Shown: positions 10,356-55,387, numbered from the whole stretch's first letter. The stretch is 62,971 nt of DNA, filler included, from Rhabdomonas costata (GCA_019059605.1; 51 parts of 51 records of this genome joined end to end with filler, not necessarily neighbours in it); one strand, 5' to 3'. The notes: a model not told the origin generated them from the sequence alone. Numbers and translations are program-made.

Positions 10356-10823
10356 GGGCGATGAGCGGGACTCTGGGCAACAAGGGGGGCATTGGCCTGA
10401 GCTTCCGTCTATTCAACAGTAGAATTTGTCTGATCAACGCCCACCTGGCTGCGCACATGGAGCACGCCGATAAGCGCCTGAAGAACTTCCAGCAGATTGT
10501 CAGCACAATGCGCTTTCGCAACAAGTTTGTGTGAGAGAGTAGTCTTACTGGTGACGTTCTCGTTTGTAGTTTTGCTCTCCTGTTTAAGAGAACCCCTAAC
10601 CACCATTACTGCGATGGAGCCATCGTCATAACCTGTTATATTGGCAGGCGCACGTCATACTCGCAGGACTCTGGCGCCGCGTGAGCATGACTTGCTGGTT
10701 TTCTTCGGGGATATGAACTATCGTATCGGGCCCCCTGTGGTGATCTCTCACGAGGAGGTCATGGATGCCGTCCGCCGCGAGGACTGGCGCACTTTGCTAC
10801 GCCACGACCAGCTGCTGCAGCAG
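10356..10823 (+). CDS. Inositol polyphosphate 5-phosphatase (exons 10356-10524, 10667-10823)
   Basis: Signature motifs GNKGGIG, INAHLAAH, FFGDMNYRI and HDQL; GT-AG intron keeps frame; second exon ends at a GC donor. Confidence 0.93.
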
Positions 10824-11142
10824 GCCCGCCCAGCCCCCAGCCCTTTTCCCAGCTCTCCTCCTCCATCTGGATAACCCGTCGTTCCCTTCGTAGAAAAGTT
10901 TTCTCGCAAGCCGAAAACGCACCTTTTAGTTCCTTGTTCATATTGCCGTGCACTGCCAATCTCCCACGTTCTCCCCCGTTATTCCGTAGACTTCTTTATG
11001 ACGAGAGCCTTTCCTCTGTGATTTTGTATGACCCCCCCCCACNNNNNNNNNNNNNNNNNNNNNNNNNNNNNNNNNNNNNNNNNNNNTTAATTAATTAANN
11101 NNNNNNNNNNNNNNNNNNNNNNNNNNNNNNNNNNNNNNNNNN

Positions 11143-12120
11143 GGAGCTCCCGGGCTTCCCAGCGGCGCTCGATCTCCAGCGCGGCCTGTACCGCCAGGTA
11201 CTCCGCTAGGGCGCACCGCCGCGGGACGTTCCACAGGCACAGCACACGGTCCCCGTGGACCTTGTCCACGACTCCGCTGTGGAAGTTCACGCACTGCTGG
11301 ACCACCGTGAGGTACTGCCGGTGCACTGCCACTAGCTGACACGACAATGCGGAAGGGAAAAAGAAAGCAGCGGCTGAATTGTAAAGAATAAACAAGGTTA
11401 ATAACTTGGTTGCGAGGGTGAGAGGGCTTGTTTTTTTTGAGAGGGCGTGGGTAATGACGGCACGCCTGCTCAGGACGTAAGGCGAACTGTGCGAACGCTG
11501 TCAGGTCCACGGAGGCCACGGTGGCCATGCGGCGGAAGTTGGCGTCCACGGCAATCACCGAGCTGGATTCGGGTAGTGATGCAACGGGCTGGAGGGTGTT
11601 TTGCTTTCGGAAGGACTTGGAGGTAGCCTGCGGCGGTTAAAAAAGATTCCCAAAAGCACAAGACCAGAAAAAAACGGGAGACAGAGGGGAACCTGTGACA
11701 TTGCAACTGCTGCAACGGACAGCTTCCTACTGTTTACGAAAACCGGTGCAGCAGCAGCAGCAGCAGTCAGAAATACAAACACAAACAGGCACATGTCTTT
11801 CTAGTGGCACTTCGTGGCACGTCGCATGTCGCACGTCCGCGTACAAGAAAGTTACGCAGATGAAATTCCGATCTCCACGCCGGAGAATCCTCCATTCCCC
11901 TTCCGGTGTAAGGTCTTCAAAGCACAGAGAGACCCTGGGAAGAGCGTCTCCGGAGAAGCTGCGCCCGGGTTGAAAGTCCAACTCCCTGGAAGAGGAGGAG
12001 GCAGTGCGGTGAAGGTACTTGGTCGCCACCACCTCCCGCTCGAGGGGGCTGGCTCTCCGTGGCGCCTCCACTATGGTGTCGGCAGAGTCCTCCTTCGTGA
12101 ACAGAGCATCGGGCATGAAC
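11143..12120 (-). CDS. Class III adenylate/guanylate cyclase-like protein (exons 12120-11934, 11627-11466, 11335-11143)
   Basis: RFMP pre-catalytic motif, ATVASVDLTAF (first metal-binding Asp), GVVDKVHGDRVLCLWN (GxxDKxxGD) and AVQAALEI. Confidence 0.82.
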
Positions 12121-13616
12121 CTTCGAAAGGGATGCGGGAGACAAACATGAAAAATGGCTTTCACCCCATGCACAGGTTAGGACGAGGTATGCCCATCTGT
12201 CAAAACGCTCTTGAAACGAAGAAGAAGAAGAAGAAGAAGCAGTAGAAAAGGAGGAGGAGGCGGCCCCCCCACCCAAACCNNNNNNNNNNNNNNNNNNNNN
12301 NNNNNNNNNNNNNNNNNNNNNNNTTAATTAATTAANNNNNNNNNNNNNNNNNNNNNNNNNNNNNNNNNNNNNNNNNNNNTTTTGGTGGGTGGAAACACCA
12401 AGCACAAAGAGAGGAAGCCATACGGGGATCGTGACTCATCCTCGTGCTTGGTGTTTCCACCCAGGTAAACCGCGGCAGCCACTTAGTGAAAGCTAAGTCG
12501 TGATACAGGCTGTCAGATGCGGAGCCCAGAGCCACAACAACACGCAAGAGGTAGGAGGCACGTAAGAGGCTCTGCGGATAGACAGCGTGTGACAGCTGTG
12601 CTACACGCACAAACGACCTTTCCATCGCCTTTATACAGAACCCATTCACCAACTCATATCCATACCATTCAACCTTTCAGATCACCAACCACCGGGCCTC
12701 CTTCTACCATCCCAACGGCCCGGCGCTCACCTATATTTACCGTTGGTCGGCCATCACCACTGGTGCCATGCACAATACTTTATGAGCGTGGAAACGTACC
12801 GTTCGTGGAGTTCTTCGGGCAGGTGTACTACGTGGCGATGCAGGGATACCTGCACGGCGTCAGCCTGCCTCCCCGGCACCAGTGCAATTTTTGCCTAGCT
12901 GATATCACTGGGCATGATAATTCCCACTGATCTATCCTCCCTGCCCGGTCCACCCAGTGCTTCAACCATGCCCCTGGGCTTCGGGGCGCAGCATGCGCCT
13001 TCCCCCTCCGGCAACGATTGTGGGCAGACCGTTCTGCCCCCGTCCGCGTAACCCTCACTCACTTCCTCCAACTGATCTCCCACTTCTCCCGTCTCCAGCA
13101 CCCCACCACCACCAAATACGCCCACCTTCACCAGCCCTCTCCATCCATCCAGTTTTCAAGCCACTCCAGAAAATCACCAAACTAGCTCCCATCCATTACT
13201 TTATCCATCAAATTCCATACCTCTTCCAGGTATTCAGCATGTACTCACATTTTTCTTCATTTTGATCGATTTCTATTGTCTTCATTTACCATTCCTAACC
13301 TCCCAGCAGCACATCTCTCACTCGATTGCTCCACCAAAGCGGACTATAGGCGCCAAATAGGTTATTTCAATGCTTGGCTTTGTGCGCAACCCTCCCTCTC
13401 CTGCATCTCCTTAGAGCACCTCCATCATCACCGCCTTTGAATGCTACCTTCTCTCATTGATTCTACCCACATCCATCCTCCGCCAGCCTTTGTGTTTCTG
13501 CGTGGGCTCACATGTTNNNNNNNNNNNNNNNNNNNNNNNNNNNNNNNNNNNNNNNNNNNNTTAATTAATTAANNNNNNNNNNNNNNNNNNNNNNNNNNNN
13601 NNNNNNNNNNNNNNNN

Positions 13617-53027: not shown

Positions 53028-53874
53028 GGTGCGTTGCGCCCTGTCAACCCAAAGTCTCCGTTTTTTTCCCACAACGGTGATTGNNNNNNNNNNNNNNNNN
53101 NNNNNNNNNNNNNNNNNNNNNNNNNNNTTAATTAATTAANNNNNNNNNNNNNNNNNNNNNNNNNNNNNNNNNNNNNNNNNNNNGGGGTGTGTGAGGATGT
53201 GTATGTTTAGGGCAGCGGCCACCACGTAGATGCATGGACCTCTGCTACGGCATGCCCCTGACGGACCATGCCTTCGTGTCAAAGCGTAACCTTCCCTGAG
53301 GATACTGCCTGTGGCTACGCCTGGACGGAGAGAACATGAGCGTGAGCGAATTTTAGCGGAGTGACACTTGTAGAAGAGTGAAGAGGGACCGACCGTGAGG
53401 GAGGGACCGACATGTTGATGCTTGGTCGCATCTTCGCATACGCTCAGATGCTCCACTCTTACCATGGTTCACTCCCCGACTGACGTCGGTACGTTCACTC
53501 GGTCATGATGAGGAACACGAGCATCGCGAGTGACCGAGTGAACGTACATTTTTGGACCTTTGTTGGACATATTCTAGCTGTGAACATATACCTGGTCCCC
53601 AATAGCCTCTTGTGCAATCTCTTTCCTCTTCAGTCACCAATGCCCGCATGTTTGTTGCCACATGTAAAACACATTGAGGTTCTCCCTCATCTCTCTATCT
53701 CGTCTAGAGCGCCATCCCAAATGGAAACCTCAGTGCCCACGCTAATACCGATGCCCGTCAAATGCACACGAGGAATCGGAACGCGCGAGGAATCGGGCTG
53801 CCCACCTGCGATTGTCTGGTTCTCCTTCGGAATGTGTTCCCGTGGTAGTCCCGTCTGGTGGTGTGGTCTTGCAG

Positions 53875-54057
53875 CTTCGTCATGGCGTTGCCCCCACCCC
53901 TATGCACAAGAGAAGGGGTACCCACCTCTCCTCCCCGCGAAGCTCCCGGCACAGCGTGATGGGTGCCGGAGGGCCGGACGCCAGCACCCGCCGCATGGCC
54001 ACTGTGGCCTCGGTTGACCTCACGGGGTTCGAGCAGTTTGCCTCCCATCCTGAGCAG
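53875..54057 (+). CDS. Class III nucleotide cyclase-like exon, paralogue of 11143-12120
   Basis: RRMATVASVDLTGFEQFASHPEQ vs RRMATVASVDLTAFAQFALRPEQ; intron at the same position. Confidence 0.8.
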
Positions 54058-54419
54058 GTGGCTTGCCTCTGCCCATTGTCGTCGCCCCGTATCCGTGAGT
54101 GAGAATTGCACACGGCAGAAGGAATAAACGGGCCAGCAAGCTGAATGTTCTTTCTGTTGATTCCCCCGCCCATGACTGGCTCCACGCCAGTCCTTGCTTC
54201 CGCTCTGTAAGTACTTTCAGCCGCATCCAAAACTGACATGGGTGAATTTCTGTCAACCTTCACACAACCTTGCCTCGCGTTGCCTTCCTGTCGGTCTTCA
54301 CACAACCACACCAAACACCNNNNNNNNNNNNNNNNNNNNNNNNNNNNNNNNNNNNNNNNNNNNTTAATTAATTAANNNNNNNNNNNNNNNNNNNNNNNNN
54401 NNNNNNNNNNNNNNNNNNN

Positions 54420-55387
54420 AGAGGGCTGATGGGTGGCGCCTGTGCAGCAGCGCTGGCTGGCCTGCAGCAGCTCCTGAGGGGGCTTTTGGCCCACCTCGTG
54501 GAGAACCCGGACCAAGTCCGAGGCCAGTTTCTGGTCTTGGGTGGGGTGGAAGAAACTCACCGCCAGTCCTGCCTTGCCAGCACGCCCCGTGCGCCCGATG
54601 CGGTGAACGTACCTTTTTTTAGAGCGGAAACGGGGTACGGGGGGAGTTTCGTCCAAGTTTCCCTAAGGTCCAGCTTCCCAGCTTCGGATCATCTATCCCA
54701 CCCATCACTGACGGGGTAATTCCCCAGCTAAAACCTAAAGTGGAACCCTTCACCAAAACGAAATCTTGCTCTGGGGCAGTGTGCCAAATCACAAAAAAAA
54801 ACCGTTGTCAGGGAAGAAAAAAAGCCGGCACCAAACCAAACTTTGGTTTTCTGGCTTTGCCCCACATCCAGCACAAGCAAACAACAACAGCAGTCTTTCG
54901 CAACCTTTCCATCCCATGTCCTCCCTCTGCCAGCAGCTCACCGCCTCACCCGGACACCAGGAACCAAATATAACACAGGGTTTTAGCAAGGATGGTGAAT
55001 AGTTTTCCTGAGTTGCTCAACTGTTACGACGTGATGACAGAATTTTTATTAAGAATCACAAGAACAATAATATGAAGGCCCATGAGTTTGCTGGACGCCA
55101 ACATACAGCACACCAATACCGGTCCCTTTGCAGACGCTTAACAGGTGATAAAGGGAGCGATGTGCGCTCGCTTGCCTGTCGATGCTGTCCGGGAGGTTGT
55201 AGTTCACCACGCAAGCCAGGTCCTTGATGTCCAGCCCCCGCCCCGCGACATCAGTGGCCACCATAACAGCGTCCTTGGTCTCCCGCAGCCGCTCCAGCGC
55301 CGCCTCGCGATCCTTCTGCGGGATCAACCCATGCAGAGCTTGCACCGACTCGCAAGTTGGGAGAAGAACCTTAACCACCTCCAGGAC
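54420..55387 (-). CDS. DEAD-box RNA helicase C-terminal domain (exons 55387-55176, 54612 onward)
   Basis: LHGLIPQKDRE, VATDVAGRGLDI (motif V), YVHRIGRTGRAG (motif VI); joined by a GC-AG intron. Confidence 0.95.

Follow-up and report, generated by a model that had tools for sequence, protein, structure and literature searches.

Complete GC-AG introns and probable GC donors in a draft-genome window of the euglenid Rhabdomonas costata

Results

The DNA analysed here (the window) is a 62,971-base stretch of the draft genome of the euglenid Rhabdomonas costata, in which 51 separate contigs of 1123-1145 bp are ordered by length and joined end to end by linkers of 44 N, TTAATTAATTAA and a further 44 N; because the contigs are separate and linker-joined, genes that are neighbours in the window are not neighbours in the genome. 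Six genes in it are at issue, for an inositol 5-phosphatase, a class III adenylate-cyclase-like protein, a Rab4-like protein, an AFG1-like ATPase, a MiaB/CDK5RAP1-like protein and a DEAD-box helicase, in each of which a first-pass annotation had placed an intron donor beginning with GC rather than GT. All six AG/GC strings (the slash marks a splice boundary here and below) are present at the positions and on the strands assigned to them, and the exon ends read cag, cag, gag, cag, cag and cag in the order just given. The three sites for which the downstream exon lies on the same contig, in the cyclase-like, AFG1-like and DEAD-box genes, splice in frame through conserved sequence, as had been claimed. 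Removal of these three introns gives in-frame products that are colinear with family profiles, and one of the products is matched by a transcript-derived protein. The 5-phosphatase and Rab sites are probable GC donors; the MiaB/CDK5RAP1-like site is only weakly anchored.

The intron of the DEAD-box helicase gene (54613..55175, minus strand, contig 45) is 563 nucleotides (nt) long, lies in phase 2 and is spliced in frame, with the donor cag/GCAAGC and the acceptor ..AAAAAAAG/gta. Searches of the PDB with the two flanking exons had six helicase chains in common (two vasa entries, BmVLG, DDX3X, Prp28 and Dbp2), and in all six the exon-1 match ends at, or extrapolates to, a residue n and the exon-2 match starts at n+2; a single chain residue is left between the matches, which is room for exactly the split codon. 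The nearest in-frame GT donor, at +33, would add 11 extra residues. Furthermore, exon 1 is identical over 69 of 69 residues (100%) to a transcript-derived R. costata protein, P0142 (EukProt EP00906_Rhabdomonas_costata_P011437), which runs unbroken across the junction, from the last exon-1 residues directly into the helicase motif of exon 2. Over exon 2 itself (54420-54611), P0142 matches at 19 residues, has one mismatch, matches at five more and then carries a different 8-residue tail.

The intron of the AFG1-like ATPase gene (25054..25542, minus strand, contig 21) is 489 nt long and is likewise spliced in frame in phase 2, between the donor cag/GCGCGG and the acceptor ..GGTTTCAG/gga. When the exons were aligned to Pfam PF03969, exon 1 reached profile position 298 and was followed by two more residues, and exon 2 continued from position 301, which is the residue of the split codon. 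Moving the donor to the nearest GT, at -9 with the same acceptor, costs three profile positions.

The third complete intron (11336..11465, minus strand, contig 10) lies in the class III adenylate-cyclase-like gene; it is 130 nt long, in phase 0 and spliced in frame, with the borders cag/GCGTGC and ..GTGTCAG/cta. An exhaustive HMMER search with exon 2 gave 21 matches (best E = 5.8e-17), some of them class III cyclases of bacteria and euglenids; closest to the exon among named proteins are two from R. costata, with about 48-49% and 46% identity. On a local hidden Markov model (HMM) of 10 homologues (11 were chosen and one, which was without the anchoring motif, was dropped), the GC splice scored 97.5 bits and thereby exceeded its two nearest GT-AG alternatives by 5.5 bits (donor +7, acceptor +4; 92.0 bits) and 13.5 bits (donor -11, acceptor +4; 84.0 bits). 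A paralogous cyclase-like gene on contig 44 (53184-54319) ends the same exon with a GT donor, cag/GTGGCT (54058..54063, plus strand); thus the intron position is common to both copies, and +2 differs between them (GC vs GT). The intron starts of the two paralogues, that of contig 10 (11143-12279) and that of contig 44, can apparently still be aligned (G[C/T]G..TGCC..CCCA). Upstream in the cyclase-like gene of contig 10, a GT-AG intron is predicted from coding signal only (11563..11982, minus strand).

At the two probable sites, the downstream exon lies off the contig. The 5-phosphatase exon ends at cag/GCCCGC (10824..10829, plus strand), where Pfam PF22669 reaches position 211 of 288 and a synaptojanin alignment stops at ..QQAR, the exon end being ..LLQQ(AR). 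No GT occurs from the end of the homology to the in-frame stop, so a GT donor is certainly excluded here; another GC, 4 nt further on, is an equally possible donor. The first coding exon of the Rab4-like gene ends at gag/GCGCCT (15751..15756, plus strand), and similarity to seven homologues is gone after ..SYE; the sole GT ahead of the in-frame stop would append 15 non-homologous residues. Both of these one-ended donors are probably GC. The sixth site, cag/GCCCTG in the MiaB/CDK5RAP1-like gene (38225..38244, plus strand), is followed by the contig end after 20 nt. Here the NCBIfam matches extend as far as residue 33, the one directly ahead of the site, and reading through the site adds no score; the profile end is weakly suggestive, being compatible with a donor at 38225 and not proof of one. 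The string GCCCTG is, in addition, consistent with the 5' half of the euglenid nonconventional-intron signature.

Beside the six GC sites, 17 GT donors were placed, which makes 23 donors in all. The annotation had spoken of roughly 30 donors; the 6 GC donors and 17 GT donors are accounted for, but a number of about 24 GT donors was not reproduced. Five of the 17 GT donors belong to complete introns with homology on both sides: one between two 5-phosphatase exons (10525..10666, plus strand; PF22669 positions 107-160 and 166-211, with the frame read from the sequence by eye), two in the MiaB-like gene (37428..37684, TIGR00089 259-285 then 286-322, and 37796..38125, TIGR00089 286-322 then 323-354; both plus strand and in frame), one in a MORN-repeat gene (17694..18090, plus strand; MORN matches on both exons, in frame) and one in an alpha-kinase gene (27786..28163, plus strand; PF02816 42-80 and 90-146, in frame). 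Another seven were placed by one-sided homology or a paralogue, or by a strong coding signal on both sides, and the last five by nothing more than a coding signal with an in-frame stop close by. A GT-AG intron at 47396..47838 (minus strand) separates two exons with a strong coding signal that belong to no Pfam or NCBIfam family. A codon-usage gene model was left out of the counting because it is blind to the difference between GC and GT donors. Counted in this way, GC-AG introns make up 3 of the 8 complete introns anchored by homology, or 3 of 10 when two introns with coding signal only are added; among all placed donors, the GC share is 6/23 as claimed and 5/22 without the weak MiaB-like site.

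GC-AG introns elsewhere usually compensate with a near-consensus AAGT at +3 to +6. None of the six GC donors (GCCCGC, GCGTGC, GCGCCT, GCGCGG, GCCCTG and GCAAGC) has AAGT, whose absence had been reported for five of the six; the sixth (DEAD-box) reads AAGC. The GT donors are equally loose, as had been stated, with GTTTGT, GTGCGA, GTCTCT and GTCGGG among the 17, and no GA donor occurs among the 23 that were placed. Exonic AG precedes all six GC sites, again in line with the earlier description, and 9/17 GT sites (one-sided p = 0.05); with only the firm GC sites, the comparison is 3/3 vs 9/17 (p = 0.19). A G at +5 is found at 4/6 GC and 12/17 GT donors (Fisher p = 1.0), and at all three firm GC donors. 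The acceptors of the three complete GC-AG introns are CAG, CAG and AAG. The 20 nt before the AG hold 15, 8 and 12 pyrimidines in the cyclase-like, AFG1-like and DEAD-box introns, respectively (C/T counts of 8/7, 3/5 and 7/5), and C outnumbers T in these 20 nt in 4 of 9 complete introns (2/3 GC-AG and 2/6 GT-AG).

A repeated CAG or AG at the two junctions gives every one of the three complete GC-AG introns 4-5 equivalent boundary positions, just one of which yields GC..AG ends. The signature of nonconventional introns in Euglena, N3CDG..CH'GN5-6/R (Nomura et al. 2025, PMC12501133), is complete in none of the 10 complete introns, the three GC-AG introns included, at any equivalent position. Pairing of the intron ends was measured by a test after Gao et al. 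(10+U7+10), on which stable pairing of the nonconventional kind would be about -10 to -2 kcal/mol; the three GC-AG introns gave -1.1, -2.9 and -1.4 kcal/mol, and the GT-AG introns gave 0, 0, 0, -0.8, -3.2 and -5.4 kcal/mol. The three introns thus appear to behave as conventional introns with a C at +2. A search of the whole window with Rfam at gathering thresholds gave 0 matches, and so no small nuclear RNA (snRNA) gene (U1, U6) or spliced-leader RNA. The donor box of U12-type introns is ATCCTT, and a U12-type assignment was rejected, the six GC donors showing no AT-AC or GT-AG ends together with a rigid ATCCTT-like box.

Discussion

We consider it likely, with good confidence, that the flagged sites are ordinary U2-type spliceosomal GC-AG introns of R. 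costata or of a near-identical strain. GC-AG introns of this kind would belong to the known conventional class of euglenids and would represent no new recognition mode. The conventional border is given as GT/C-AG by Milanowski et al. (2014, PMC3935182), and Soukal et al. (2021, PMC8219788) write the conventional borders of R. costata as "GT(GC)/AG" and describe its nonconventional introns as rare; the introns of the window are like these in coming from the same organism and in having a border that already counts as conventional. The main text of the latter paper holds no frequency for GC-AG introns ("gc-ag" occurs 0 times there, and the intron tables are in the supplements), and, judged by titles and the openings of abstracts, it is the only paper in the literature matched that has R. 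costata introns as its subject.

The closest comparison by number is with Euglena gracilis, whose 28,337 introns comprise 11,527 GT-AG, 659 GC-AG and 16,151 nonconventional introns (57%), GC-AG thus being 659 of 12,186 conventional introns, or 5.4% (Gao et al. 2024, PMC11170887). The GT-AG consensus in that species, GTGTG, pairs with U1, and in the GC-AG group only the G at +5 is prominent. The introns described here are like the E. gracilis GC-AG introns in their euglenid host, in beginning with GC and ending with AG, in a weak and short donor where +5 G stands out, in the CAG acceptor and in counting as a variant of the spliceosomal class; unlike in E. gracilis, 3 of 8-10 complete introns in the window are GC-AG, and the C-rich polypyrimidine tract described for that species (PMC11170887) is not clear. 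In animals, fungi and plants, GT-AG introns make up 97.9-98.7%, and GC-AG introns are below 1% in model organisms (Frey and Pucker 2020, PMC7072748). The U2-type GC-AG introns of those groups, which are removed by the major spliceosome, share with the present ones the GC at +1/+2, the 3' AG and a preference for exonic AG; however, they differ in rarity and in that none of the six R. costata sites carries AAGT. Dinoflagellates, with their G(C/A)-AG introns, are similar in being protists with frequent GC donors and spliced-leader trans-splicing (PMC5029490), but they belong to another supergroup, GA donors are absent from the 23 placed here, and the lineage markers of the window are euglenid. 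Among diplonemids, two species known from fragmentary drafts have about 97% noncanonical introns and the others at least 97% GT-AG (PMC12621601). Diplonemids were accordingly rejected as the source of the window, and so were dinoflagellates, with which the lineage markers disagree.

As to the earlier description of these donors as unusually frequent, their excess is real when set against animals, fungi and plants, with roughly 1%; set against euglenids, with the 5.4% of E. gracilis conventional introns, it is only suggestive. A divergent U1/U6 recognition mode, relying on exonic AG and +5 G, had also been proposed. Both features are present (6/6 and 4/6 GC donors, respectively), but they lend no support to a special mode, GT donors having +5 G just as often and the excess of exonic AG being marginal; a weak donor leaning on the remaining U1 and U6 contacts is the ordinary pattern, already published for E. 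gracilis (PMC11170887), and gives no evidence of a divergent mode. In the spliceosomal removal that is envisaged for the three GC-AG introns, a short and information-poor donor would be recognised by U1 and then by U6, with exonic AG, the G at +1 and the G at +5 as anchors. In euglenids the positions +3, +4 and +6 would contribute little to recognition, and a change from T to C at +2 may accordingly be tolerated more often in this group than in animals, fungi and plants. Euglenids are the one group in which GT-AG splicing exists beside a second, unexplained system of intron removal, which gives interest to how the rule was loosened in them.

Several observations weigh against the reading as ordinary GC-AG introns. 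All 29 of the hand-checked complete introns in six housekeeping genes of R. costata are GT/AG (PMC8219788). A dynamic-programming gene model built on codon usage, with a penalty of 3 nats for GC, found GT-AG solutions for all three GC-AG introns, and hence the GC calls rest on homology. Both Pfam matches of the AFG1-like exons are below threshold (23.0 and 23.3 bits, with a cut-off of 27), a word-based search (108 candidates) and a PDB search with the AFG1 exon returned no AFG1 relative, and the acceptor of this intron is poor in pyrimidines (only 8 in the 20 nt before the AG). The cyclase-like exons taken alone match no Pfam or NCBIfam family, and in the PDB exon 1 has no match and exon 2 a best match of E = 0.29 (an adenylate cyclase). 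Transcript-derived support exists for one of the three complete GC-AG junctions, that of the DEAD-box gene, and there P0142 and genomic exon 2 disagree at 1 of the 24 residues aligned past the junction, beyond which the two part; P0142 may come from an allele or a paralogue, or the disagreement may stem from faulty transcript assembly or from an alternative 3' end.

It is possible, though doubtful, that GC donors account for at least 15% of conventional introns across the R. costata genome, as a result of lineage-specific, relaxed recognition of +2 by U1/U6. The local counts given above favour such a rate: the chance of at least 3 GC-AG introns in 10 is 0.00011 at a rate of 1%, 0.014 at 5.4% and 0.18 at 15%, and that of at least 5 GC donors in 22 is 0.0056 at 5.4%. 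However, the 29 published introns, all GT/AG, would have a chance of 0.20 at a GC rate of 5.4% and of 0.009 at 15%; when they are pooled with the introns of the window, GC-AG falls to between 3/37 and 3/39, about 8% (95% interval 1.6-22%). Moreover, the whole draft would fill some 1,700 such windows, of which about 24 are expected to reach at least 3/10 by chance at 5.4%. A G at +5 is no more frequent among GC donors than among GT donors and gives altered recognition no support, and the Rfam search returned no snRNA gene from the window. The rate matters for what these introns mean. Should it be near 5%, as in E. gracilis, the present cases are routine annotation of a known minor class; should it be 15-35% genome-wide, R. 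costata would offer a tractable spliceosome that barely reads +2, in a lineage without the nonconventional system, and would be informative about the sequence of steps by which euglenid introns evolved. Still more speculative, and rather unlikely, is the idea that R. costata, an osmotrophic and deep-branching euglenid with hardly any nonconventional introns, splices about one in five of its conventional introns from a GC donor, its spliceosome having nearly ceased to read +2 as a possible stepping stone to the euglenid escape from GT-AG; a rate of one in five, if true, would exceed that of E. gracilis several-fold and that of animals, fungi and plants about twenty-fold. The GC-donor rate of R. 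costata is answerable from public data, namely the draft assembly and a transcriptome.

It is improbable that one or more of the three complete GC-AG introns have been mis-drawn, a nearby GT being the donor used, or that the draft consensus wrongly gives C at +2. Each of the three can also be drawn in frame with GT-AG ends, as the codon-usage model prefers under its GC penalty, and the assembly is of low coverage (10-20x) and made from amplified DNA (PMC8219788). However, the DEAD-box alternative inserts its 11 residues where all six helicases have room for one, and it contradicts P0142; the AFG1 alternative removes three profile positions, and those of the cyclase-like gene score 5.5 and 13.5 bits lower. 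Three independent errors, each at +2 of a donor, would not be expected from random base errors. Gene finders that forbid GC donors, or penalise them heavily, will mis-draw R. costata genes, as the codon-usage model did for all three introns with solutions that homology rejects.

Least probable of all, and very unlikely, is that some of the sites, chiefly the one-ended 5-phosphatase and MiaB-like sites, are nonconventional or intermediate introns that have GC-like ends only and are removed without the spliceosome: euglenids do have such introns, with CAG or AG direct repeats and a boundary ambiguous over 4-5 positions as seen here, and intron 5 of E. gracilis tubA, where CAG direct repeats allow four equivalent positions and the last gives GC-AG ends, is a precedent (PMC3935182), and N3CDG is found near the 5-phosphatase site (offsets -9, -6 and +4) and the MiaB-like site (-9, -6 and 0); but chance alone would give this half-signature at about 1 position in 21, the Rab site has none within 9 nt, the full signature is absent from all three complete GC-AG introns, the terminal pairing appears weak, and nonconventional introns are rare in R. 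costata, with seven putative cases after manual inspection (PMC8219788).

Other features of the window

The published R. costata draft has an N50 of 1194, a GC content of 51.63% and 36,105 contigs that reach at least 1 kb (PMC8219788), and the 1.1-kb contigs of the window agree with this. In the window, GC is 0.80 at third codon positions (678 training codons) vs 0.32-0.57 across whole contigs. A C-terminal exon of GAPDH (38345..38452, plus strand, contig 32), identified by PDB sequence matches, served as a lineage marker; its top four PDB matches are kinetoplastid glycosomal GAPDHs (54.4-57.2 bits), and the next scores 44.7 bits. The exon carries an insertion-like stretch, LPNEKRFFK, and its C-terminal end reads ..KYMATP before the stop. 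Glycosomal enzymes of trypanosomatids end in an SKL- or AKL-like tripeptide, and the R. costata GAPDH exon ends without one. The best named matches of the Rab exon are euglenozoan, one of them from Entosiphon sulcatum; identity to the closest Euglena gracilis match (EG_transcript) is only 61%. E. gracilis was rejected as the source of the window on this ground and because the 10 complete introns include no nonconventional one, against 57% in that species. In a search among proteins of 168-2000 residues, the best identity of the Rab exon was 68%, and no protein of R. costata approached 100%.

Microsatellites of the (CA)n/(TG)n type are very common in introns and flanks (e.g., 15400-15465, 2560-2640, 7280-7330 and 29200-29260), and in many frames their translation gives HTHT or CVCV runs. 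CA-rich motifs have been reported in diplonemid introns as well (PMC12621601).

Contig 4 (3720-4856) looks foreign, with 32% GC vs about 44-57% in the other contigs, and is filled entirely by one open frame of 367 codons rich in N, T, S and Y. Its protein matches no Pfam family, and its look-alikes in the ESM Atlas, discoidin-like bacterial and phage proteins, all score below 0.9; the contig is probably a contaminant or of viral origin. The strongest coding signal of the window belongs to a 202-codon frame at 33938-34543 (contig 28, minus strand), which has hydrophobic stretches and no Pfam family and is a candidate for a lineage-specific membrane protein. Finally, a beta-1,3-glucanase exon of glycoside hydrolase family 64 lies at 16954-17227 (contig 14, minus strand; Pfam E = 3.8e-10), and is of interest because R. 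costata stores the beta-1,3-glucan paramylon.

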